Positions 1,696-13,197 of a stretch of DNA of 13,197 bases are shown here, piece by piece. Numbering within the stretch: the first letter of the stretch is position 1; the number at the start of each line of letters is the position of its first letter. The position numbers and the translations under genes were made by a program. The notes under the pieces were generated by a model. It had not been told where the DNA came from. It did no database searches and was given only the letters and a program-made list of their open reading frames with translations. Source of the DNA: a virus (Duplodnaviria > Heunggongvirae > Uroviricota > Caudoviricetes); IMG/VR virus record IMGVR_UViG_2703718841_000007. The stretch is one strand, 5' to 3'.

Positions 1696-1943
1696 CCGAT
1701 GCTCCCCCTAAATTTTTGAAAAAATTAGAAGTGGTCAGAAATCACCCTGATTTGTTGGTGGTTTTGTATATATCTCTGTTAGTGATTTGAGCATTGGTGC
1801 AGTACGTTAATGTAGGTACTGCCCCAGCCCGGTGTCCCGCTGTGCCGGGATGAACGCGATCTCGTCCATCTGGCTGTCAAATCCCTGCATTGCCCGTCTG
1901 GGCATGTTCGCAATGAGAAAATCGGTTAATGCCGTTAACTGGC

Positions 1944-2396
1944 TCATATCATGGCCACCGTAATGCGTTTCAGCCCTTTGATGCGGCGTACTGCCAGTGT
2001 GGACTCTGCAATCAGGCTGGAGCGGGTTTCGTCACTTTCCTGCCCCGGATGGCTCTCACGGCGACCAACAGACGCAAATTCGCCCATCAAATCAGCTTTG
2101 GCACGTGCATATACCGCTTTGCGATAACGGGCGCACAACAGATTTTCGCCGTCAATTTCCACGCCCGAAACGTCCGCCGCGCGCTCATGGCCAGCATTGC
2201 GATACCTTGCCGCCACACTGACCAGATCATCATTGATTTCGCCGGCTGCAGTCAGCAGTGCCTGGCGGATGGTGGCCGCATCAATATCGGCCGGAATGGT
2301 GCGCTGGGACTGAAAATCTTTCACGCTCAGGTCAGGCCAGAAGCCATCATTCGTCAGAGTGGCATCGTCAAAATCAATTGAAGTTCCGCTGAACAT
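1944..2396 (-). CDS. P2 gpL-like head completion/stabilisation protein
   Basis: ORF resembles the gpL family (FWPDLS region, central acidic region, Y-rich C-terminal part) and lies downstream of the M-like gene as in P2. The track ORF starts at GTG 2435; the ATG at 2396 has a GGAG Shine-Dalgarno 7 nt upstream and is preferred. Confidence 0.6.
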   Translation of the reverse strand: MFSGTSIDFDDATLTNDGFWPDLSVKDFQSQRTIPADIDAATIRQALLTAAGEINDDLVSVAARYRNAGHERAADVSGVEIDGENLLCARYRKAVYARAKADLMGEFASVGRRESHPGQESDETRSSLIAESTLAVRRIKGLKRITVAMI

Positions 2397-2489
2397 CCTG
2401 TTTCTCCGGAAAAAAGCGGGCTGGCCGGTTTCCACGGGCGATACGCTTATGCGATCCCCTCCACCGCGCCCGCTTTCGGGTCGGTAGTC

Positions 2490-2681
2490 TTACTCGCCGC
2501 GTTTTGCGGCCTGAATCTCACCTTCTTCAAACCACGCATCAGATGCGCGGCCGTCAGCAGTCTGATAGTGGATCAGATACTGATTGCAGCTGTTGGTGTA
2601 CTCCGCACGGGCTTTGATATGCCCCTCTTCGCCGCTAATGGAAACTTCAACAACCTGGCCTAACTCATGCTTAAACGACAT
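2490..2681 (-). CDS. Hypothetical small protein (63 aa) between the M-like and L-like genes
   Basis: ATG start at 2681 with a GGGAG Shine-Dalgarno 6-7 nt upstream; the start lies 1 nt after the M-like stop (tight coupling). No family recognised. Confidence 0.5.
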   Translation of the reverse strand: MSFKHELGQVVEVSISGEEGHIKARAEYTNSCNQYLIHYQTADGRASDAWFEEGEIQAAKRGE

Positions 2682-2682
2682 A

Positions 2683-3396
2683 TCAAACTCCCGTAGACTC
2701 TTTTTTCAGCGCCCGCAGACGCGCAGCAATACGCTGCAACATCGTGCCAACACCACATTTAGGGTCGAATCCCTTCGCCTGCTCCAGCAGTTCCTTAGCC
2801 CGGAGCAATACTTCCCTGTCTTCCGTTGCCGCTGCGCGTGGCTCTCCGTTTTCATCGCGTAGCAGGTGCAGACCGGCAAACTTCAGGTATTTGGCCTTAA
2901 TGACCTCATACACATTCCAGTGCTGCGTCACGTTTTCCAGCGTACGGCCAAAATACGGCTCCACATCATGCCCCTGTACGGCTTCCGCTTCCGCCCAGGA
3001 CAACACCGTATCCGCCACAAACACCGGGAACGTACTGCCGAACGCGGCCGGGGTTTCCTGCCCCCGCTGGATTGCCATATCCGCCCAGTCCAGCGCCTGG
3101 TCAAACTGGCCTGTATCAAACAGCCAGACGACACACCAGGCAAAAACAGGATTCTGTTGCACACTGTCACCTTCCAGCCAGGATTGCGCGGTTGGCATCC
3201 AGCGCGGTAACAGCACATCACGCTTAAATTCCATTCGCTCAGCGCGGCTTTCAATCGCTGCAGCTGCGGCGACATCTTTCTCCAGCGCGACAATCTGAAT
3301 ATGCAGGCTGGTTTCCGTGTCCAGAGACTGCTGCTGTCGCAGTAACCGCTCCGCTTCAATTCGTGCGCTGTGGCGCTGTGCCGGTGACAGTTGCAT
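2683..3396 (-). CDS. P2 gpM-like terminase small (endonuclease/DNA-recognition) subunit
   Basis: N-terminus MQLSPAQRH..., LLPRWMP and WLFDTGQFDQALDWADMAIQRG segments match my recollection of the gpM family. ATG at 3396 with a strong AGGGGGA Shine-Dalgarno; starts 10 nt after the O-like stop. Confidence 0.7.
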   Translation of the reverse strand: MQLSPAQRHSARIEAERLLRQQQSLDTETSLHIQIVALEKDVAAAAAIESRAERMEFKRDVLLPRWMPTAQSWLEGDSVQQNPVFAWCVVWLFDTGQFDQALDWADMAIQRGQETPAAFGSTFPVFVADTVLSWAEAEAVQGHDVEPYFGRTLENVTQHWNVYEVIKAKYLKFAGLHLLRDENGEPRAAATEDREVLLRAKELLEQAKGFDPKCGVGTMLQRIAARLRALKKESTGV

Positions 3397-3406
3397 TAAA
3401 TCCCCC

Positions 3407-4108
3407 TTACTCGCCTGCCGGAGGCGCGACAGGTGCCCCGATAGCTACCGCTTCTTCCGCCTCACCCAGACGGGTTTCAATAGCAGATACGCGCTTATCA
3501 ATGGCATCCAGCGCTTCAGCCAGCGCCTGTAAGGCATCAGACTGTGAAGGTTCCTGCTCCGGGGTCTGCTCCGGTTCTTCGATACTGAAAAAATGGCGCC
3601 AGCCCTTTTTCGCTGTCTTTGACATTCCCTTTTCCTTTTTAAATTCCCTGACTTCATCAAACGCCAGCGGCTTGTATGGTCCGATGCGTTTTCCCCTGGT
3701 GCGGCTGAAACGTAACCGTGTGGTGCTTACCCCGGCCGGACTGTCAGTAATGGCCAGTCCCTCAAGATAGGTTTTCCCGGTATTTCTGAAATTGCCGTCC
3801 GGTGTAAACTCCGGTGATAAAAATAAAAGCTGACCGTCTGCATTTGCCTGTAGCAATGAAATCGCCGGACAGAGGCGGGCATATAAACGAAGAATACCTT
3901 CATCATCCCGCTCGGCTTTTACTTCCAGCACCTCCCCCATATTCCCGAAATTACGGGAATGTTCCGGCCATAACAGCGCGGTATACAAAGAGGGGTCATA
4001 TAATTCAGCGGCATCAAGCAACCATTGTTCTTCAATAAATCGCTTATCAACCGTTTCACCCGCAGTGGCGATACAAATCCAGTTTGTTGCCAGTTGTGAA
4101 CCTGACAT
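3407..4108 (-). CDS. P2 gpO-like capsid scaffolding protein/protease
   Basis: GKTYLEGLAITDSPAGVSTTRL and a C-terminal coiled-coil-like region (EALDAIDKRVSAIETRLGEAEE) resemble the gpO family. The track ORF starts at GTG 4168, but the ATG at 4108 has a perfect GGAGG 5 nt upstream and is preferred. Shorter than my recollection of P2 gpO (about 284 aa). Confidence 0.7.
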   Translation of the reverse strand: MSGSQLATNWICIATAGETVDKRFIEEQWLLDAAELYDPSLYTALLWPEHSRNFGNMGEVLEVKAERDDEGILRLYARLCPAISLLQANADGQLLFLSPEFTPDGNFRNTGKTYLEGLAITDSPAGVSTTRLRFSRTRGKRIGPYKPLAFDEVREFKKEKGMSKTAKKGWRHFFSIEEPEQTPEQEPSQSDALQALAEALDAIDKRVSAIETRLGEAEEAVAIGAPVAPPAGE

Positions 4109-4251
4109 ATTGCCTCCGTTCATGCTGCGGTTTTCAGTATCGCCAATAAAATTAACCGCCGCATTCACTTCATTTCGGATATAGGCTATTAGCCGAACAC
4201 ATCAGAAATAAAGCGGGATTTAATATACAAACGCCCGTGCATAATGTGTGC

Positions 4252-5496
4252 ATGGCTAAATATTCAGAAGAATTAAAAGGCGTTGCGCGGGCGCTTTATT
4301 TAAAACGCTATACCCCGCAGGAAATTGCCAGCGAACTTAATCTGCCTAACAGACGCATTGTCTATTACTGGGCGGAGAAATATTGCTGGGCGGAATTACT
4401 CAGTCATGAATCCACCGAAGATGCATTAAACCGTCGCATTCAGTCACTGACATTACGTGAAGGGAAATCGGAGCTGGAGCTGCGGGAGCTGGACAGTCTC
4501 GTTTCTCACCTGGTGAAACTACGTGCACAGCACAATAAGCATCAGGAAAAGCTGGCAGAAATTAAACACAGTGAAAATGATGCGCCGGCGCGTCAGTCCG
4601 GTGGCGACGAAAAGCCCCGGAAACGTGGCAAGTACAAAAAGAACGACATCAGCGGACTGACACAGGAAGATTTTGACCGGTTCGCGCTGGAGCACCTTTT
4701 CGGTTACCAGAAACACCTTCGCGCTAATCTTCATCAGCAAATCAGGAACATCCTGAAAAGCCGCCAGATTGGTGCAACCTGGTATTTCTCAATAGAAGCC
4801 TTTGAGAATGCGGTCATGACAGGCGATCCGCAAATCTTCCTGTCCGCATCAAAGGCTCAGGCGGAAGTATTCCGCAGCTATATCGTCAACATTGCGGAGC
4901 AGTATTTCGGCGTGGAGCTGACGGGAAACCCCATCCGCCTCTCCAACGGCGCGGAGATGCGATTCCTGTCCACCAACAAGAACACCGCCCAGTCATACAG
5001 CGGCCATCTGTACTGCGATGAATATTTCTGGGTACCCAACTTTGCAAAATTAAACGAAGTGGCCAGCGCGATGGCCACACACGACAAATGGCGAACCACC
5101 TACTTTTCCACCCCCAGCAGCAAAACGCACCAGGCGTACCCGTTCTGGACTGGTGAAGAATGGAAGCGCGGTGACAAAAAACGCGCGCGCGTACAATTTC
5201 CCACGGAGAAGGAGCTGCGCGACGGTGGACGGTTATGTCCTGATGGGCAGTGGCGCTACATCATCACAATGGAAGACGCGATCGCAGGCGGGTTTAATCT
5301 CGCCAGCATCGGGAAGCTGCGCAACCGCTACAACCGCGACACTTTCAACATGCTGTATATGTGCGTGTTCGTGGACAGCAAGGACAGCGTATTTTCGTTC
5401 TCTCACGTAGAACGCTGCTGTGTAGATCCGGATATGACAATGAAGCGGAACACTGGACGCTCCCGATTGACCGGCTGGCGCTGGCGCAACTGGTGA
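4252..5496 (+). CDS. P2 gpP-like terminase large (ATPase) subunit, C-terminally truncated; probable pseudogene
   Basis: N-terminal HTH-like region, then KSRQIGATWYF (Walker A-like), FLSAS, DEYFWVP (Walker B-like) and YFSTPSS...PFWTGE typical of the gpP family. Family resemblance stops near 5427 (...HVERCCVD) and the ORF ends after a 23-aa unrelated tail. It has about 415 aa against about 590 in P2 gpP (recalled), so the C-terminal nuclease domain is absent. The GTG at 4237 is an alternative start. Confidence 0.65.
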   Translation: MAKYSEELKGVARALYLKRYTPQEIASELNLPNRRIVYYWAEKYCWAELLSHESTEDALNRRIQSLTLREGKSELELRELDSLVSHLVKLRAQHNKHQEKLAEIKHSENDAPARQSGGDEKPRKRGKYKKNDISGLTQEDFDRFALEHLFGYQKHLRANLHQQIRNILKSRQIGATWYFSIEAFENAVMTGDPQIFLSASKAQAEVFRSYIVNIAEQYFGVELTGNPIRLSNGAEMRFLSTNKNTAQSYSGHLYCDEYFWVPNFAKLNEVASAMATHDKWRTTYFSTPSSKTHQAYPFWTGEEWKRGDKKRARVQFPTEKELRDGGRLCPDGQWRYIITMEDAIAGGFNLASIGKLRNRYNRDTFNMLYMCVFVDSKDSVFSFSHVERCCVDPDMTMKRNTGRSRLTGWRWRNW

Positions 5497-6332
5497 ACCT
5501 GAACGCGCAGCACGGCGGTGTGCTGTATGCCCGTCGCAATATGGTGACGGCAAACTATAAAGACGGCGGACTGACGCATGAACAGCTTGGTGCAGCCGTG
5601 TTCGACTGGCTGACCTTCGGTGATGTGGCCATTCTGAAAGTGCGTAACGGCTGGGGGGATGTGGTGGCACTGTACCCGCTGCCGGCACTCTATACCCGCC
5701 AGCGTAAGACCGGGGAGTTTGTGGTACTGCAGCAGGGTGAACCGATGATTTATCCGCCTGAAGATATTATTTTTCTCAGGCAGTACGATCCGCAACAGGC
5801 GATTTATGGTCTGCCGGATTATATCAGCGGTATCCATTCTGCCCTGCTTAACGGTGAGGCAACAATTTTTCGTCGGCGTTACTACCATAACGGCGGACAC
5901 ACAGGTGGCATGATCTACTGTAACGACCCAAATATGACTGATGAAGTGGAAGAAGAAATTATTCAGAAGCTGGAGCAGTCAAAGGGGATCGGGAACTTCA
6001 GCACCATGTTTGTGAACATCCCCAAAGGCGATCCGGACGGCATCAAATTTATCCCGATTGGGGATATCAGCGCCAAAGATGAGTTTCAGAACATCAAGAG
6101 CATCAGCGCCCAGGACGTACTGACCGCGCATCGATTCCCGGCAGGACTGGCGGGGATTATCCCGACGAACGGCGCAGTAATGGGAGATGTTGAGAAAGCG
6201 TCCAAAACCTACCGCAAAGCAGAAATTTTGCCCATTCAGCGCATGTTTACCGCCGCAGTGGAACAGGAAAGTGATGTACCGCCCCACCTGTACCTTAATT
6301 TCCTGAAAGACAGTGAGCTGGAAGGTGATTAA
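5361..6332 (+). CDS. P2 gpQ-like portal protein, N-terminally truncated and out of frame with the upstream P-like ORF; probable pseudogene
   Basis: IYGLPDYISGIHSALLNGEATIFRRRYYHNGGHTGG and the downstream KGIGNF...DGIKFIPIGDISAKDEFQNIKSISAQDVLTAHRFPAGL resemble the gpQ portal family. Resemblance begins about 25-35 residues into this frame-3 ORF, which overlaps the end of the frame-1 P-like ORF. The listed start is a GTG chosen by the ORF caller, not a credible initiation site. Confidence 0.6.
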   Translation: MRVRGQQGQRIFVLSRRTLLCRSGYDNEAEHWTLPIDRLALAQLVNLNAQHGGVLYARRNMVTANYKDGGLTHEQLGAAVFDWLTFGDVAILKVRNGWGDVVALYPLPALYTRQRKTGEFVVLQQGEPMIYPPEDIIFLRQYDPQQAIYGLPDYISGIHSALLNGEATIFRRRYYHNGGHTGGMIYCNDPNMTDEVEEEIIQKLEQSKGIGNFSTMFVNIPKGDPDGIKFIPIGDISAKDEFQNIKSISAQDVLTAHRFPAGLAGIIPTNGAVMGDVEKASKTYRKAEILPIQRMFTAAVEQESDVPPHLYLNFLKDSELEGD

Positions 6333-6800: not shown

Positions 6801-7520
6801 ATGTTAATAGTCTCAGTTCTTAAATGTAGTAAAGAGTTTACCCCTAAACACGCCCAATGGCTTCATCGTCAGTTCAAAGATATTCCATCTATATGTTTAA
6901 CCGATGCAGATAATATTCCTGGAGTTAACACAACCCCTTTGCTTTATAACTGGCCGGGATGGTGGTCTAAAATTGAACTATTTAATCCTAATCACCCAGT
7001 CCTTGGAGACCAAGATTTACTCTATTTTGACGTAGATGTTGTGGTCACGGGAGATATTCATATTTTCGAAGGTGCGAAGAAATTTACAATGCTTCGGGAG
7101 TTTAACCATGCCTCAAGAGTAAACTCATCAATAATGATGATTCCGGCGTCGATTAAAAAGACGATTTGGGAACAATTCATTATTGATCCTGAGAAAATTA
7201 TGCGCAATTGTCAGACTGAAGACAAATGGGGTGATCAGGGATTTCTCGGTAGCATCATAAAACCAGCCCTATGGCAGGATATCATTCCTGGCTCAATTGT
7301 TAGTTATAAATGTGACATCGCCACCCCCTCGATGATTGGCTTCAATGCAAATTTAGCCTCTGAGGCTGCGACAGGGAAAGTCCCTGATAATGTGGCGGTT
7401 GTTTGCTTTCATGGCAGTCCACGCCCCTGGCGTACTGGTTTTGATTGGGTTCCTTCGTTTTCCCTGCGGGATACTCTGTACGGTAAATTAAAGAACTTTA
7501 AAATAAGAATGAAGCAATAA
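6801..7520 (+). CDS. GT-A-fold glycosyltransferase-like protein (GT8-like DxD and H-x-G-x-x-[KR]-P-W motifs); accessory/cargo gene
   Basis: LYFDVDVVV (DxD, about residue 75) and CFHGSPRPW (about residue 212) match the two signature motifs of retaining GT8-type transferases (LgtC/WaaJ type), with similar inter-motif spacing. Strong Shine-Dalgarno. AT-rich relative to neighbours (60-nt lines hand-counted: 6841-6900 has 24 G+C, 7141-7200 has 21 G+C). Convergent with the primase gene. Confidence 0.5.
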   Translation: MLIVSVLKCSKEFTPKHAQWLHRQFKDIPSICLTDADNIPGVNTTPLLYNWPGWWSKIELFNPNHPVLGDQDLLYFDVDVVVTGDIHIFEGAKKFTMLREFNHASRVNSSIMMIPASIKKTIWEQFIIDPEKIMRNCQTEDKWGDQGFLGSIIKPALWQDIIPGSIVSYKCDIATPSMIGFNANLASEAATGKVPDNVAVVCFHGSPRPWRTGFDWVPSFSLRDTLYGKLKNFKIRMKQ

Positions 7521-7588
7521 AGATAACGCCCCTATTGCTTCAATGTTCGCTCCTTCCCCTAACAATAAAGTTAGGCACTAGTGAACCG

Positions 7589-10246
7589 TTACTTTTCCCG
7601 GCCAAATATCCAGCAGCGGAATGTTTCCGGCATCCGTTGCATATCCCCTTTACCACGATTATGGCGCTCACTTACCGCGCTGCGCGTGGTGCTTTGTCTG
7701 ATAAACCGGCGCTCATTGCCGTTTTTAAGCAGCTTTTTAATTTCCGTTAACGTGAACGGAATACGCTGCCGGTGTGCTGCGGCGACCTCTTCCATGTGAT
7801 TGAAATTAACCGCGATTTCATTTTCATCTGATGAATGATTGATGCCATAAGGTGCCAGTTCATCCAAGTAATCAAACAGCTCCCAGAACTCCTGCACCAG
7901 AGGATGATCCTTTTTAAGTGCCTGACAACGTTCAACGGCCAGCGCGGTGATGGCTTCACGCGTTTTTTCTATACGTTCAACCGGCACCGGTACAACAAGT
8001 GCAAGCGCCTCCAGCAAGCCCACAAGCTGCGCGTGATTCTTTGCAATACGGATATGGCGAATACTGCTATTAGACTCCAGCTCATTCCTAGCTCGCTCGT
8101 ACCCCCTGCCGAACGTCTGCATGATTTCTTTTTCGCGCATGGTGGCCAGTAATGTGAATCCGGATACCTGGCTAACGGGGAGTTGTTCAAGTCGTTCTGC
8201 AGCGTGGCGCGTCTGAATGGACTGGCCGCGCTTGTCGGTATAGATGTGGATGATACGCTCCAGAAACGCCTTGCTGCCGTCTGTGTCGGCATTTTGCGCT
8301 ATCACAATACTTCCCCTGAACGGCGGCTCATACGTCTCGTTATTGTTCGATTTGATACCCACGGCGCGGGAGGCACGACCGTTATACAGTGATTTCAGCT
8401 CGTCCCAGTCAAAAGCGCGTTGCTTGGCGTTATCGGTAGTACGGTCGCCCTCAATCAGCACAACCGGCAGATTACCGACCTGGGCGAAGTTACGGCCACG
8501 CGCGGCGGCGGTAGATTTAGATGGGTCAAACCCTTCGTATTCCTCACGGCCGGCGAGCTTCCAGAGAAATTCTATCAGCGTGGATTTACCTGTCCCCGGC
8601 TCGCCCACGATTTCCAGAAACGGAAATGACTTGTCACGCTCGCGGATTTGTTCGGCAAACAGCGACCCCAGCCAGAACGCCAGAGCCACATACCCTTTTT
8701 CACCAAATGCCGTCCAGATATCGTCTACCCAACCCGTAGTAAACTCGTTCAGCTTCGGATTCAGATCCAGCGCCGGCGTGAGGCTCAGGCTCTTAACACT
8801 GGCACTGTTGATTTCGAAGTAATCCTCGTCGTTCATCTCATACAGCCGGCCATCGCAAACGGCCACGCGGTTAAACAACCAGGCGGCATAATCCTTGTTA
8901 TAGCCGATGAAATTCTGCGTCTTTACCTCTTTGATTTCAGGGAGGCGCATCTGGATGAACTTATCCAGCTGTTTGGTGCTGCCTGTGTACACCGCCCCTT
9001 TGGCGATGTGCAGCAGACGCTTTTTGAACTCGGCGGAGCTGGTGAGCTGATTAGCCGTGAAAGTATCTTTCACGGCTGGCCGGTTAGGCATACTGACTTT
9101 CACGTAATACCAGGACTCGTCCGTAGGTTCAGACCGCTGAAAGTAAAGCGGCGTCAGCCAGCAGTTAGCTATTTCGGTCACGCCGCCTGACTCTTTAACC
9201 GCCCGTTCTTTGGCCTCCCACTCCATCACCACTTCGGTACCGGTATTGGTGATGCGCTCATAGGCTCGCATATACCTGTCCAGATCCAGCTCAAACCAGT
9301 ACATGCGGGAGTTATGCTCAAAGTAGAACGAGTGCCACTCGTTATGCTGATGCATGAGCAGCGCTTTCTCAGTCGGGCTTTTTGCCAGAAGGAGATCGCC
9401 ATAGTAGCGATAATTTTTAATGTCCGACTTACTGAACCGGTTACGTAACAACAGGTCATTCCAGTCCAGCGATGCCGATGATTTCACCGGCTGCGCGGCA
9501 CGAGTTTTCCATCCTGCAGCATCACTACGGGCAGCGAACGCCAGTGTGTGCTTTGTGCCGGCTTTATCGCCGTCAAACGCCCATACAAGACGTGGACGTG
9601 GTTTTTCACCCAGTTCTTTGGCCAGCGTATCCAGTGCGGCCAGCGGATAGTTGTTACTGCTCAGTGTGGCAACTGCAGGTAACCCTGCCTGGCACAGACT
9701 CAGCGCGTTGAAGATTCCCTCAGTGATCCAGATTTCGTTCACTTCCTGCAGGTTGATAAAGGGAGGAACCCACCAGTGACCGACATAGCTTCCCCTGATG
9801 TTGGCTTTCTGCTTACCGAAGCGCTGCGGCTGGTCAATGATGCGCTCCCATGTTGCACCGCATGACAGCGAAAATCTGACCGTTGCCGACCCCATGCCAT
9901 CTTTCACGAATGCACCCTGGGTAAAACAGCCTTTTAATGGCTCAGTCTCCAGCCCTCTGGCCTCGCGCAGATACGCCTCAGCTACTGCATGGGGGTTATC
10001 TTCTGTGGTCTGGTAACGTTTTGACCAGTCTTCAAAGATATCCGGATACAGCTCTTTCACGACAATCTGATGTGCGCAGTTATTTTCACGGCCACATTTC
10101 AGAATCCAGGGCTTTTCTATGCTGGTAAATAATTCGCGCTTACGACAGGCAGGGCAAACGCCCTGCTGCAAATACTTATCCCGCTCTTTAAATTCAAAGT
10201 CCCGAACAAGACGGCGCACAACGTCCTGTTGTATCGTTTCGTTCAT
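7589..10246 (-). CDS. P4-alpha-type bifunctional DNA primase/helicase (zinc-binding plus TOPRIM primase, P-loop helicase, C-terminal domain)
   Basis: CPACRK...CGRENNC zinc motif; TOPRIM-like ITEGIFNALSL and WAFDGDKAG; Walker A IVGEPGTGKST. One 60-nt line (8461-8520) hand-counted at 38 G+C. The ORF is open from TTG 10282; the first ATG is 10246; neither has a good Shine-Dalgarno. This is not a P2 A-type rolling-circle initiator. Confidence 0.8.
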   Translation of the reverse strand: MNETIQQDVVRRLVRDFEFKERDKYLQQGVCPACRKRELFTSIEKPWILKCGRENNCAHQIVVKELYPDIFEDWSKRYQTTEDNPHAVAEAYLREARGLETEPLKGCFTQGAFVKDGMGSATVRFSLSCGATWERIIDQPQRFGKQKANIRGSYVGHWWVPPFINLQEVNEIWITEGIFNALSLCQAGLPAVATLSSNNYPLAALDTLAKELGEKPRPRLVWAFDGDKAGTKHTLAFAARSDAAGWKTRAAQPVKSSASLDWNDLLLRNRFSKSDIKNYRYYGDLLLAKSPTEKALLMHQHNEWHSFYFEHNSRMYWFELDLDRYMRAYERITNTGTEVVMEWEAKERAVKESGGVTEIANCWLTPLYFQRSEPTDESWYYVKVSMPNRPAVKDTFTANQLTSSAEFKKRLLHIAKGAVYTGSTKQLDKFIQMRLPEIKEVKTQNFIGYNKDYAAWLFNRVAVCDGRLYEMNDEDYFEINSASVKSLSLTPALDLNPKLNEFTTGWVDDIWTAFGEKGYVALAFWLGSLFAEQIRERDKSFPFLEIVGEPGTGKSTLIEFLWKLAGREEYEGFDPSKSTAAARGRNFAQVGNLPVVLIEGDRTTDNAKQRAFDWDELKSLYNGRASRAVGIKSNNNETYEPPFRGSIVIAQNADTDGSKAFLERIIHIYTDKRGQSIQTRHAAERLEQLPVSQVSGFTLLATMREKEIMQTFGRGYERARNELESNSSIRHIRIAKNHAQLVGLLEALALVVPVPVERIEKTREAITALAVERCQALKKDHPLVQEFWELFDYLDELAPYGINHSSDENEIAVNFNHMEEVAAAHRQRIPFTLTEIKKLLKNGNERRFIRQSTTRSAVSERHNRGKGDMQRMPETFRCWIFGREK

Positions 10247-10285
10247 AAATAATCCAGATGTGAAATAATGGGTAAAAGGCAAAAA

Positions 10286-10504
10286 CTATATTCTGTACTG
10301 CTTGTTATATCGCTCATGTGTCATTAGTTCCCAGCTTCTGCCCTTATCCTTACTCAGTAATCGCCAGCGATAAGAAACATAAACAGAGAAATAATGTTTT
10401 GGCTTAATAACCTGATATACCTTTTTGCCGTTGTAATATTCTGTCAGCACTGAAAATGCCTTGTGAATGACACTTTCACTTGCATGAGAGGTCACTGTAA
10501 GCAT
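10286..10504 (-). CDS. Hypothetical protein (72 aa), AT-rich
   Basis: ATG start 2 nt after the exonuclease stop; ends 3 nt before the primase ORF. No family recognised. Lys/Tyr/Arg-rich. Confidence 0.45.
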   Translation of the reverse strand: MLTVTSHASESVIHKAFSVLTEYYNGKKVYQVIKPKHYFSVYVSYRWRLLSKDKGRSWELMTHERYNKQYRI

Positions 10505-10506
10505 CG

Positions 10507-11076
10507 TTATTTCACACTGGCTATTTTTACAAGATACATCCAGACATAAGAAACAACTTTAGCCTGATGAATGGCATCATATAAAGCGTGATGTTTAACA
10601 CCATCAAACTTAATAATATTACGAACATTCAGCCCAAGTGTTTTTGACAGTTCAACAACCGTTCTTACATCACGGTCATTCCAGTAGTACCAAAGTGGAT
10701 CGGCAAACCCGCATTTCTCTGATGCATTACGTAAAATAACATTGTCGAACGCTGCACTATTCCCCCATACCTGTACTTTAGATGGGTCAGAATGCTCAGT
10801 AATAAAAGCTTCCAGATTAGCTAACGTCAGAGGCAAGTCCAGACAATCGTCATTAAGCAGCTCGCTACGCGCTTCGGCATCCTGACGCATCCACCATAAT
10901 ACGGTTTCTGACCCCATAGTGAGACCGTGGCCTACACAGCTGCCCAGGCTGACACGTTGATAAAACTGTTCACCCATTTCGCCAGTTTCAGGGTCAAAGA
11001 ATACAGCACCGATAGAAGCAATCGCAGAAGTCGGTTTATTATCCATTGTTTCAAGGTCAATCATTAAATGTTTCAT
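10507..11076 (-). CDS. DEDDh-type 3'-5' exonuclease (DnaQ/RNase T-like fold)
   Basis: Exo I MIDLET (D-x-E), Exo II WGNSAAFD, Exo III HHALYD (H-x4-D). AAGGA Shine-Dalgarno 8 nt upstream of the ATG. AT-rich (line 10561-10620 hand-counted at 19 G+C). Confidence 0.7.
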   Translation of the reverse strand: MKHLMIDLETMDNKPTSAIASIGAVFFDPETGEMGEQFYQRVSLGSCVGHGLTMGSETVLWWMRQDAEARSELLNDDCLDLPLTLANLEAFITEHSDPSKVQVWGNSAAFDNVILRNASEKCGFADPLWYYWNDRDVRTVVELSKTLGLNVRNIIKFDGVKHHALYDAIHQAKVVSYVWMYLVKIASVK

Positions 11077-11085
11077 ATCGGTTCC

Positions 11086-11421
11086 TTAACGTTGGGAAGC
11101 TGCAACAGATTTAAGATGCGAGTTATTACTTTTTAACGCTGTGGTAGCCAGCGACATAAGACCGGAAATGTTATTTTCAGTTGGTATATTTCCGCCAAAT
11201 ACCATAAGCGTGATTTTGTGCAGTTCTTCAAAATCATCACTATCATTATTAAAGCGAGCAGTGGAGGTTATACCCTCAAGGCATTTTGCAAGCTGAATGT
11301 TTAATTCCATTAACTGCAAGCCATCGCTATGTACAGAGAATGTTTCTTTATCAATGGTTTTTGCCTGAGCGTGATAGTTTTGCAACAGACTACGAATCAG
11401 CGTGGCATATTTAGTCTTCAT
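11086..11421 (-). CDS. Hypothetical protein (about 111 aa), AT-rich
   Basis: The ORF is open from TTG 11433; the ATG at 11421 has a GGGGA Shine-Dalgarno 7 nt upstream. Its stop is 9 nt before the exonuclease start. No family recognised. Confidence 0.45.
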   Translation of the reverse strand: MKTKYATLIRSLLQNYHAQAKTIDKETFSVHSDGLQLMELNIQLAKCLEGITSTARFNNDSDDFEELHKITLMVFGGNIPTENNISGLMSLATTALKSNNSHLKSVAASQR

Positions 11422-11447
11422 GATAATCCCCAATAATATTTAGTTTA

Positions 11448-11729
11448 CTAACGAGCACTTTTATCTTTCGTGAATAAACGGTTCTTCCAGTCATGCCATT
11501 CAGGCGGGGCAATTTGAGCCAAATGAATGGCATAAGCATCCCATTCCCCCCGATGGATATAGATTTCCCCACCTTTTTTTGATGGATTTAGAGGGTCTTT
11601 CATGCGGATTACCGGCAGTTTTCCAGCCGTGGCCATTTTGCGAATTGCAGCAGGCGTTTTGCCTATATATTCGGCAAAAAGCTCAGGGGTCACCAACTCT
11701 GAAAGCGCCTTTTCTGCTGGTTCCTTCAT
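11448..11729 (-). CDS. cox: P2 Cox-like excisionase/switch repressor
   Basis: 93 aa with AGKLPVIRMKDP, corresponding to the KLPVIDM region of P2 Cox as I recall it. It is transcribed divergently from the C-like repressor and is the first gene of the early operon, as in P2. Confidence 0.7.
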   Translation of the reverse strand: MKEPAEKALSELVTPELFAEYIGKTPAAIRKMATAGKLPVIRMKDPLNPSKKGGEIYIHRGEWDAYAIHLAQIAPPEWHDWKNRLFTKDKSAR

Positions 11730-11837
11730 CTGTGGTATCCTTCGTTAGTTTGGGTTCCTAGGGCGCTTTAAGTCGTTCTAGGGTTCTTTTGTCAAGGTTC
11801 TTTTGTAAGAACCAATAATAGTTGCGATACAAGAACC
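11730..11837. promoter_or_regulatory. Immunity-switch intergenic region with operator-like repeats between cox and the C-type repressor
   Basis: Read directly: GGTTCTT at 11782-11788 and 11796-11802; perfect inverted repeat GGTTCTT-TTGT-AAGAACC at 11796-11813; a further AAGAACC at 11831-11837 abutting the C start codon; direct repeat GTTC(C)TAGGG at 11753-11763 and 11775-11783. Confidence 0.6.
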
Positions 11838-12137
11838 ATGTCAAGAAATTATGCGGAGAAACTCCGGCAGATCCGGAAAGCTGAAGGGTTAACTCAAAAA
11901 GATTTTTCAGAGCTTACTGGGGTAGCTCTTGGAACAATAAAAAAGTACGAAACTGGCCATCAGCCAGCTCGTGCAGAAGTCTTAGAAAGTGTTATAGAGG
12001 TACATATGTTTGAAAAATATACACTCTGGTTAATGACAGATAAGACGGCACCAATTGCGGGGCAGGTGTCCCCGTCTCTCTCCCCTGATGGGCAAGACAA
12101 CATAACATCATCCCGTTCCACCCGGAAAATTGGCTAA
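11838..12137 (+). CDS. P2 C-type immunity repressor (small XRE-family HTH protein)
   Basis: 99 aa, the same length as P2 C. HTH LTQKDFSELTGVALGTIKKYETG and the KYTLWLMTDKTAPIAGQVSP segment match my recollection of P2 C (KYTLWFMT...). Lies upstream of and co-directional with int, as in P2. Confidence 0.8.
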   Translation: MSRNYAEKLRQIRKAEGLTQKDFSELTGVALGTIKKYETGHQPARAEVLESVIEVHMFEKYTLWLMTDKTAPIAGQVSPSLSPDGQDNITSSRSTRKIG

Positions 12138-12203
12138 ACATCTGGTTTTTCTATGCGTTAGCGCAAAATTTACATAATGATTCATACATCGGAGGGCTTC
12201 GCT

Positions 12204-12464
12204 ATGTCGATTAAGAAGCTTGATGATGGTCGTTTTGAAGTGGACGTTAGACCGCGCGGAACCTCAGGAAGAAGGATTCGACGCAAATTTGACAGAAAGG
12301 CGGAAGCACAGGCATACGAGCGGTATGTACTGACAAACTTTCACGATAAAGAATGGCAGGATAAACCCGCAGACAGGAGGCTTGTATCCGAGTTAATTTC
12401 TTTATGGTGGAGCTACCATGGAAAGAATCACAACTATGGTGACTCATATAAAAAGCGTTTGGAA
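12204..12464 (+). pseudogene. int: Tyrosine integrase, N-terminal arm-binding domain fragment (frame 3), separated from the catalytic part by a +1 frameshift
   Basis: MSIKKLDDGRFEVDVRPRGTSGRRIRRKFDRKAEAQAYERY is a typical phage integrase N-terminal domain. GGAGGG Shine-Dalgarno 7 nt before the ATG at 12204. The reading frame switches inside the A7 run at 12463-12469. Confidence 0.65.
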
Positions 12465-13197
12465 AAAAATCAACCGAGAAATGGCGGAACCCAGAGTGTA
12501 CGAGCTTACCCGCAACTTTCTGATGAAATATCGTGCAGAACGACTTCATAGTGGAGTATCTGCTGGCACGGTAAACAGGGATTTCTGTTCCATGTCCAGC
12601 ATGTTCAGTTTGCTGATAGATATGGAAGAATTTCATCACGAAAACCCGTTTCGCGCCGTGAAGAAGTTACGTCTGGAAAACACAGAAATGTCATTTCTGT
12701 CCGAAGAAGAGATCCACCATTTGCTGAATGCCCTTACAGGGGATGATCGCAGAGTTGTCGTTCTTTGCCTGAATACAGGAGCACGATGGGGTGAAGCCAG
12801 TAATCTTAAAGCTGAAAACGTGATAAGTAACCGTGTGACCTTTGTTAAGACCAAAACCGGCCCAGCTCGTACTGTTCCGATATCGAAGGAAATCGCGGAC
12901 TACATCCTTACACGCAAATCGGGGAAATTGTTCGATACCAACTATGAGCGAGTTCGCGATGTTCTTCGTAAGATTAAGCCAGACTTGCCGAAAGGTCAGG
13001 CACTGCATGTTTTACGCCATACCTTCGCAACACATTTCATGATCAACGGCGGGAATATCATCACGCTACAGCGTATTTTGGGTCATACAACAATCGAGCA
13101 AACAATGACATATGCTCACTTCGCCCCAGATTATCTGACTGATGCCATACGATTTAACCCTATGCGTGGGAGTGTCCACATAATGTCCACCGACTAG
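12418..13197 (+). CDS. int: Tyrosine integrase, core-binding and catalytic domains (frame 1); C-terminal part of the frameshifted int
   Basis: Catalytic signatures TGARWGEA (box I Arg) and HVLRHTFATHFMINGGNIITLQRILGHTTIEQTMTYAHF (H-x-x-R and Tyr region). The stop codon is the last three bases of the window. The ORF's own ATG at 12418 is internal to the gene. Confidence 0.85.
   Translation: MERITTMVTHIKSVWKKINREMAEPRVYELTRNFLMKYRAERLHSGVSAGTVNRDFCSMSSMFSLLIDMEEFHHENPFRAVKKLRLENTEMSFLSEEEIHHLLNALTGDDRRVVVLCLNTGARWGEASNLKAENVISNRVTFVKTKTGPARTVPISKEIADYILTRKSGKLFDTNYERVRDVLRKIKPDLPKGQALHVLRHTFATHFMINGGNIITLQRILGHTTIEQTMTYAHFAPDYLTDAIRFNPMRGSVHIMSTD

Follow-up and report, generated by a model that had tools for sequence, protein, structure and literature searches.

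Three small genes on the minus strand separate cox from the primase gene in a 13,197-nucleotide stretch of Caudoviricetes DNA (IMG/VR virus record IMGVR_UViG_2703718841_000007; "the window" denotes this whole stretch). They encode a protein of 111 amino acids (aa; orf111), a 189-aa DEDDh exonuclease related to DexA of phage T4, and a 72-aa protein of the Pfam family PF24732 (orf72), and they belong to a degraded P2-family (P2-like) prophage of E. coli. We consider it an even call that this trio is an early lytic DNA-metabolism module, in which a DexA-type exonuclease is expressed along with the primase, a small protein dedicated to it and a helical protein specific to the lineage. Upon derepression of this Evevirus-like early operon of the P2 family, a single transcript from the promoter before cox would comprise cox, orf111, the exonuclease gene, orf72 and the primase gene. 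The exonuclease would most likely trim free 3' ends of DNA, either in the scavenging of host DNA or on replication or recombination intermediates, as described for DexA. The orf72 protein would be a partner dedicated to this enzyme and coupled to it in translation, and would probably serve as a binding or regulatory subunit and not as a toxin in its own right; the orf111 protein would be a helical protein of this lineage that accompanies the primase-type replication module. We observed directly the identity and conservation of the genes, the layout of the operon, the purifying selection, the catalytic residues and the association of the exonuclease with PF24732; we infer the substrate of the exonuclease, the physical interaction and the replication role, and a role as a replication accessory agrees with the place of the three genes in the conserved core.

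Conservation of the trio in the early operon

The gene order C / cox-orf111-exonuclease-orf72-primase is constant in 33 related loci (32 IMG/VR viral contigs retrieved via orf111, and phage ESSI2_ev239), with orf72 absent in L022 alone. The isolated phage in this set, ESSI2_ev239 (Evevirus, Peduoviridae; NC_049392), shares the order of the integrase gene, the repressor gene, cox, the 111-aa gene, an exonuclease-fold gene, the 72-aa gene and the primase gene with the window, and is 92% identical to it in orf111, 92% in orf72 (an open reading frame, ORF, that is unannotated in ev239) and 95% in the primase. It differs in two respects. Identity between its 'exoribonuclease' and the window enzyme is only 48%, and three catalytic residues of the former (the motif II Asp, the His and the motif III Asp) are missing; moreover, its genome is that of a complete phage of 29.2 kb, whereas the window represents a decayed remnant.

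All three genes are under purifying selection. Median ratios of nonsynonymous to synonymous substitutions (dN/dS; pairwise Nei-Gojobori) are 0.108 for both orf111 and the exonuclease gene and 0.098 for orf72, compared with 0.081 for cox and 0.040 for the primase gene. Homologues of both small proteins are found across the Enterobacteriaceae, including Salmonella, Citrobacter and Kosakonia for orf72, and Klebsiella, Serratia, Cedecea, Citrobacter and Salmonella for orf111. With conservation in related elements and dN/dS values of about 0.1, the two small ORFs are genuine genes and not spurious predictions, a possibility that the preliminary description of this DNA, which was made from the sequence alone, had left standing.

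The same description had reported three AT-rich genes between cox and the primase gene and had called them compositionally distinct from these two, a contrast in G+C content (GC) that could suggest a foreign module. Their position and composition are borne out: GC is 38.7% for orf111, 42.3% for the exonuclease gene and 38.4% for orf72, while cox has 46.8% and the primase gene 52.4%. The reported contrast of 19 versus 38 G+C per 60-nucleotide line, however, is a selected extreme, as lines of the region range from 19 to 34, and the immunity region as a whole (int, C, cox) reaches just 45-47% GC. An argument from composition for a foreign module does not hold. Over the 33 loci, GC ranges from 0.32 to 0.41 for orf72, 0.35 to 0.41 for orf111, 0.38 to 0.47 for the exonuclease gene and 0.45 to 0.55 for the primase gene. 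The same order, the same low GC and the dN/dS of about 0.1 in the relatives therefore show that the trio is part of the core early operon of this lineage rather than a recent AT-rich insertion, and it is not an inserted defence island.

The assignment to the early operon is in agreement with two sequence signals, both of them pattern matches. A promoter-like sequence before cox agrees with the sigma-70 consensus at 11 of 12 positions and points away from the C-repressor gene, and an intrinsic-terminator-like hairpin follows the primase gene; between the two, the only minus-strand terminator-like match is a weak one within the primase gene (9612-9593). Promoter and terminator thus bracket cox, orf111, the exonuclease gene, orf72 and the primase gene, which therefore look like one early operon. 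Gaps of 2 to 9 nucleotides (nt) had been reported for the tightly packed genes. This is correct for the two inner gaps (orf111-exonuclease, 9 nt; exonuclease-orf72, 2 nt), but not for the outer ones, since orf111 starts 26 nt after cox from its ATG (14 nt from a TTG), and the primase gene starts 39 nt after orf72 from the ATG at 10246 (only 3 nt from a TTG at 10282). The ATG at 10246 is the likely start, yielding 885 aa, equal to the length of the ev239 primase. Scans of the window and the region for Rfam families and repeats gave no matches.

For orf111, co-inheritance with the primase module is the sole lead to a function. The gene is specific to the primase-type lineage; relatives that use the replication protein gpA have different small genes at that position, for example DUF4761, DUF4754 and Fil. 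Its product matches only phrog_7058, to which no function is assigned, and has no match in Pfam, NCBIfam or PADLOC, and an exhaustive profile search against 1.84 billion representatives returned six matches, all of them members of its own family or fragments. The structural model is a four-helix protein (predicted local distance difference test score, pLDDT, 78.7), whose structural neighbours are generic helical bundles only. The earlier statement that neither small protein has a recognisable family thus stands for the 111-aa protein and fails for the 72-aa protein, for which profile searches led to PF24732 and phrog_1525.

The DexA-like exonuclease and its PF24732 neighbour

The middle gene encodes a DEDDh family member with an intact active site, for which 3'-5' activity is predicted. 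It matches PF16473 (Rv2179c-like 3'-5' exoribonuclease domain) with 227.6 bits (cutoff 27) over the complete profile (positions 1-177 of 177), and all five DEDDh residues (D7, E9, D111, H162, D167) are present and align with D, E, D, H186 and D191 of DexA, so that the DEDDh motifs recognised in the preliminary description are confirmed. The family occurs in 1590 phage records (tblastn), T4-like dexA included. The only sequence relative with a solved structure is the 227-aa T4 DexA itself (8KEL/8KEN; E 1.7e-9, residues 4-179), an assignment that agrees with the T4 genome copy. Both proteins belong to the same family and share the catalytic residues, and DexA W152 corresponds to W132 of the window enzyme. 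In contrast to DexA, the window enzyme (about 28% identical) is 38 residues shorter and has no counterpart of the surface loops of DexA; L83 stands in place of the tetramerisation residue D90, and D169, which has been proposed to read 5-hydroxymethylcytosine (5hmC), is replaced by K145 or G148, depending on whether the equivalent is taken from a BLAST alignment with the EcD type (see below) or from a phmmer alignment with DexA. Furthermore, it is encoded in the early operon of a temperate P2-like phage and paired with PF24732, whereas the annotation of the T4 dexA neighbourhood, which was consulted without a further scan, lists no PF24732-like partner. A literature search found no papers on PF24732 or PF16473.

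The exonuclease slot of the window lineage is occupied by two clades, one of 189-aa proteins with intact DEDDh residues, to which the window enzyme belongs, and one of catalytically dead 186-aa proteins. The latter is found in 14 of the 33 related loci, including ev239 (L002, 6306-6866; L006; L008; L009; L021-L023; L025; L026; L030-L034), and shares 41-49% identity with the window enzyme. With an unambiguous alignment on the flanks, other residues are found in place of the Exo II Asp, the catalytic His and the Exo III Asp, and the dead proteins are nevertheless full length and under the same purifying selection (dN/dS 0.114). A second group comes from Klebsiella-type loci (L066, 3447-3992; L082-L161), a sample biased to relatives of the Klebsiella query, in which about 69 of 72 proteins upstream of PF24732 lack both the Exo I Glu and the His, in most cases together with the Exo II Asp. 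Dead DexA-fold proteins that have lost 2 to 4 of the 5 DEDDh residues thus exist in at least two clades (ev239 type and Klebsiella type). As the dead fold is kept at full length and under selection, catalysis must be dispensable for whatever retains the fold and its pairing with PF24732.

Between the active and the dead clade, the N-terminus (MKHLMID) and the C-terminal tail (VSYVWMYLVKIASVK; window 10507-10560, compared with the protein ends in L002-L034) are near-invariant, although the sequences are elsewhere only 41-49% identical. These ends could be recombination junctions, or an interaction or coupling element beside the start of orf72.

The orf72 protein matches PF24732 (ParE_like) with 60.3 bits (cutoff 24.4) and is named 'ParE family toxin-like protein' in RefSeq. 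The family comprises about 190 clusters, and the named sources among the 120 listed are all Enterobacterales genera. The conserved motif of orf72 is GYL.I.VG.RWRLLSKN.G..W.LMTHE.YN, and its predicted structure is a helix with a sheet of three to four strands. A DexA-like gene is directly followed by a PF24732 gene in the window lineage, in E. coli contig L056 (EcD type), and in loci from Klebsiella (L066-68), Hafnia (L074-75) and Pantoea (L076-77), the latter three groups being gpA-type P2-like prophages. Of 80 further IMG/VR loci, at least 78 show the same pairing. One apparent fusion of the two proteins (L102, 2410-3228) was rejected, as it represents the frameshifted 3' end of an exonuclease gene reading into the next gene.

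The likeness of orf72 to type II toxins of the ParE/RelE superfamily, namely the Pfam label, the small size, the predicted helix and sheet and the tight spacing to the upstream gene, raises the alternative that the orf72 protein is such a toxin or a host-takeover factor, which the exonuclease-fold protein encoded upstream neutralises or targets. A toxin-like pair of this kind would explain why catalysis is dispensable, with dead partners still under purifying selection, and the start of the PF24732 gene lies within a few nucleotides of the upstream stop codon, or overlaps it, in most sampled contexts, while the partner varies (DexA-like, DUF2857, small ORFs). In addition, the invariant T-H-E-x-Y-N tail of orf72 resembles C-terminal motifs of HigB and ParE, a comparison that gave short local matches only. 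On the other hand, orf72 shows no significant sequence or structure match to ParE, RelE, HigB or YoeB; its profile found no match among PDB sequences, and hhalign against HigB, ParE and RelE gave only motif matches of 5 to 20 residues. orf72 sits in a lytic operon between the 189-aa exonuclease gene and the primase gene, with no adjacent gene for a small, antitoxin-like DNA-binding protein, and it is missing from the otherwise intact relative L022. We therefore regard a toxin-like pair as quite unlikely.

A different role is suggested by EcD, an E. coli DexA homologue which, when expressed from a plasmid, is reported to cut the T4 genome, to spare unmodified double-stranded DNA and to protect against T4 ('HREX'; Kang et al. 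2025, PMC12153337). Starting from the published cloning primers, we traced an EcD-type gene in five IMG/VR contigs (L038, L043, L053, L056, L059); the encoded protein has 189 aa, starts with MIDTET and carries Ala78, and the 3' end of the gene fits the reverse primer except for one base. In L056 (gene at 5679-6248) the locus reads int, C / cox, DUF4761, DUF4754, exonuclease, a 75-aa PF24732 protein and Dam. The early operon that contains the EcD-type gene is thus that of a P2-like prophage of the gpA type, and the 'bacterial' EcD turns out to be an early gene of a prophage, in the slot that the exonuclease gene occupies in the window. The word 'prophage' does not occur in the main text of that study, nor is the PF24732 partner gene mentioned (PMC12153337).

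By analogy, the window enzyme might serve superinfection exclusion or defence, degrading incoming modified DNA such as that of T-even phages with 5hmC while sparing host DNA, with orf72 as a modulator. EcD is a published precedent for such an activity (PMC12153337). It is DexA-like, of the same length and 36% identical to the window enzyme (E 3e-38), it occupies the same early-operon slot with PF24732 next to it, and both enzymes lack the D90 tetramerisation residue and retain the Trp (W132 in the window enzyme). However, of the two residues proposed for 5hmC recognition in HREX the window enzyme keeps only this Trp; at the position of DexA D169, EcD has an acidic Glu and the window enzyme Lys145. 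The EcD prophage also differs in using gpA, with Dam downstream, instead of a Toprim primase, and the defence phenotype was demonstrated for EcD alone and with plasmid expression only. Within a prophage, the exonuclease gene lies behind a C-repressed early promoter and should be silent in the lysogen, as judged from P2 biology; the catalytically dead versions in many relatives and the position in a conserved core slot rather than a variable cargo locus also weigh against exclusion. This role thus appears rather unlikely for the window enzyme.

Anti-defence, in which immune nucleic acids (retron or DRT complementary DNA, oligonucleotide messengers) would be removed or sequestered early in the lytic cycle by the exonuclease, or by dead variants that serve as sponges, is in our view very unlikely. 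Immediate expression on derepression, small uncharacterised proteins and AT-richness would fit, and a role limited to binding would be in line with the conservation of dead variants. The host 3'-5' single-stranded DNA exonuclease ExoI has been reported to limit the poly-dA products of DRT9 (PMC13174585), so that the same would in principle be possible for a 3'-5' exonuclease from a phage. Yet no described anti-defence protein emerged as a homologue, this proposal is wholly inferential, and the position of the trio is invariant across the lineage, unlike that of a variable accessory locus. In favour of the DNA-metabolism module, PADLOC assigned no defence-system model to the locus, its sole match being a generic CRISPR-associated DEDDh domain. 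Replication accessory, anti-defence and exclusion, the three roles envisaged in the preliminary description, are not separable by computation.

Several observations weigh against the early DNA-metabolism module that we prefer. With dead folds in 14 of 33 and about 69 of 72 loci, exonuclease catalysis cannot generally be what keeps the pair together. PF24732 genes also occur without an exonuclease gene, namely after DUF2857 genes in elements resembling integrative and conjugative elements (ICE), and after small ORFs in Serratia P2-like and Mixta prophages. Moreover, the 36%-identical homologue EcD is reported to act in defence, not in replication (PMC12153337).

In the ICE-like elements (L069, 3438-4255; L071, 3405-4231), which show a DnaB ... 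AcaB, TopB neighbourhood, the PF24732 gene overlaps the stop codon of the DUF2857 gene. That DUF2857 is a diverged exonuclease was ruled out (hhalign probability 0.3%).

A broader interpretation, which we put forward tentatively and consider doubtful, is that DexA-fold and PF24732 proteins constitute an unrecognised two-component module of P2-like phages with a conserved function that does not require catalysis, in which at least two clades have turned the exonuclease fold into a pseudo-enzyme that is kept by purifying selection beside PF24732, while PF24732 has been re-used with other partners in ICE. Such a module might be a toxin/neutraliser-like or a nucleic-acid-binding, sponge-like device that targets processes of the host or of competitors at an early stage of lytic growth.

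The decayed prophage around the trio

The coordinates of the early operon and its immunity region are given in Table 1. The window region is 99.6-100% identical to the chromosome in 19 of 5426 complete E. coli genomes. In RefSeq, the element is located between raiA and pheL and annotated as a prophage remnant, with a frameshifted integrase, a repressor, Cox ('Cox family DNA-binding protein'), a hypothetical protein, a '3'-5' exonuclease', the 'ParE family toxin-like protein' and a toprim protein, followed by Ogr/Delta, truncated portal and large terminase genes, gpO, gpM, a head-completion protein, a partial tail gene and an acyltransferase.

Table 1. Features of the immunity region and early operon in the window (positions in nt)
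Feature	Position	Strand	Evidence and remarks
C-type (HTH_3) immunity repressor	11838..12137	+	PF01381 E 1e-9, phrog_147; divergent from cox
Early promoter (Pe-like), upstream of cox	11815..11844	-	TTGACA, 18-nt spacer, TATTAT; consensus match only
cox, Cox-family excisionase/repressor, first gene of the early operon	11448..11729	-	PF10743 E 7.7e-25, phrog_1831
orf111, all-helical, narrow enterobacterial phage family	11086..11421	-	111 aa from ATG; 115 aa from TTG at 11433
DexA/Rv2179c-like DEDDh 3'-5' exonuclease (predicted activity), 189 aa	10507..11076	-	PF16473 E 1.1e-67, phrog_255 'exonuclease'
orf72, 72 aa, PF24732 ('ParE_like')	10286..10504	-	PF24732 E 1.9e-16, phrog_1525
Toprim primase with P-loop (helicase-like) domain, last gene of the operon	7589..10246	-	Toprim_3 E 6.6e-11; DUF5906 sub-threshold; phrog_1139 'DNA primase' E 0
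Intrinsic-terminator-like hairpin, after the primase gene	7510..7542	-	14-bp stem, then T run; pattern match only

The locus has the organisation of a P2-like early operon, with a divergent C/Cox switch, the replication gene in last position and P2-type late genes, except that the replication protein is a Toprim primase and not gpA. Pfam matches to P2-type late genes within the window comprise Ogr_Delta, Phage_portal, Terminase, Phage_GPO and Phage_term_smal. A helper phage had been invoked for the element in the preliminary description, which implies a satellite devoid of virion genes of its own. The window does, however, retain remains of the genes for the portal, the large and the small terminase, the scaffold and head completion, and related contigs of 26-35 kb are full P2-like genomes. 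Because of these remnants of its own head genes and the gene order shared with ev239, the element is a decayed P2-like prophage and not a helper-dependent satellite.

Decay is apparent at several sites. The P2-type integrase gene (12177-13197) is broken into two overlapping frames with ORFs of 124 aa and 259 aa, and with the integrase split, the prophage is probably unable to excise. At 1929-6332, the large terminase (419-aa ORF) and portal (323-aa ORF) genes are truncated and overlapping; the same segment holds gpO, gpM and the head-completion gene, beyond which just one tail-gene fragment remains. In strain 23CRST024 (L001, 18344-20047), the primase ORF is shortened to 567 aa and matches residues 388-885 of the window primase only (tblastn), which indicates that the remnant is decaying further in some strains. 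The exonuclease gene, orf72 and orf111 of this strain are still identical to those of the window.

Two further genes lie outside the early operon. A 239-aa ORF at 6801-7520 (41% GC), between ogr and the terminator of the primase gene, matches phrog_1962 ('glycosyltransferase', moron category) and had no match in Pfam, NCBIfam or PADLOC searches; it is found in the closest relatives only (L001, L003-L005) and therefore looks like variable cargo. At the prophage edge beside raiA (144-1331, 36% GC), a 395-aa acyltransferase (Acyl_transf_3) is encoded, which is probably a serotype-conversion moron, as ev239 has an O-acetyltransferase at the corresponding end.

Implications for P2-like phages and for EcD

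The trio is largely ordinary in that its members belong to the early core of a phage family already known and are RefSeq genes, two of them named by family and the 111-aa protein as a hypothetical protein. Some value lies in the relation to EcD. The origin of this HREX enzyme in the repressor-controlled lytic operon of a prophage changes the reading of its published defence phenotype, and PF24732 accompanies the exonuclease in most of the P2-like contexts sampled, whereas the protein was left out of the published work on EcD. If the two-component module proposed above is true, EcD would be one catalytically active member of it. The widespread pseudo-enzymes maintained by selection, finally, point to a non-catalytic function of the exonuclease fold in these phages.

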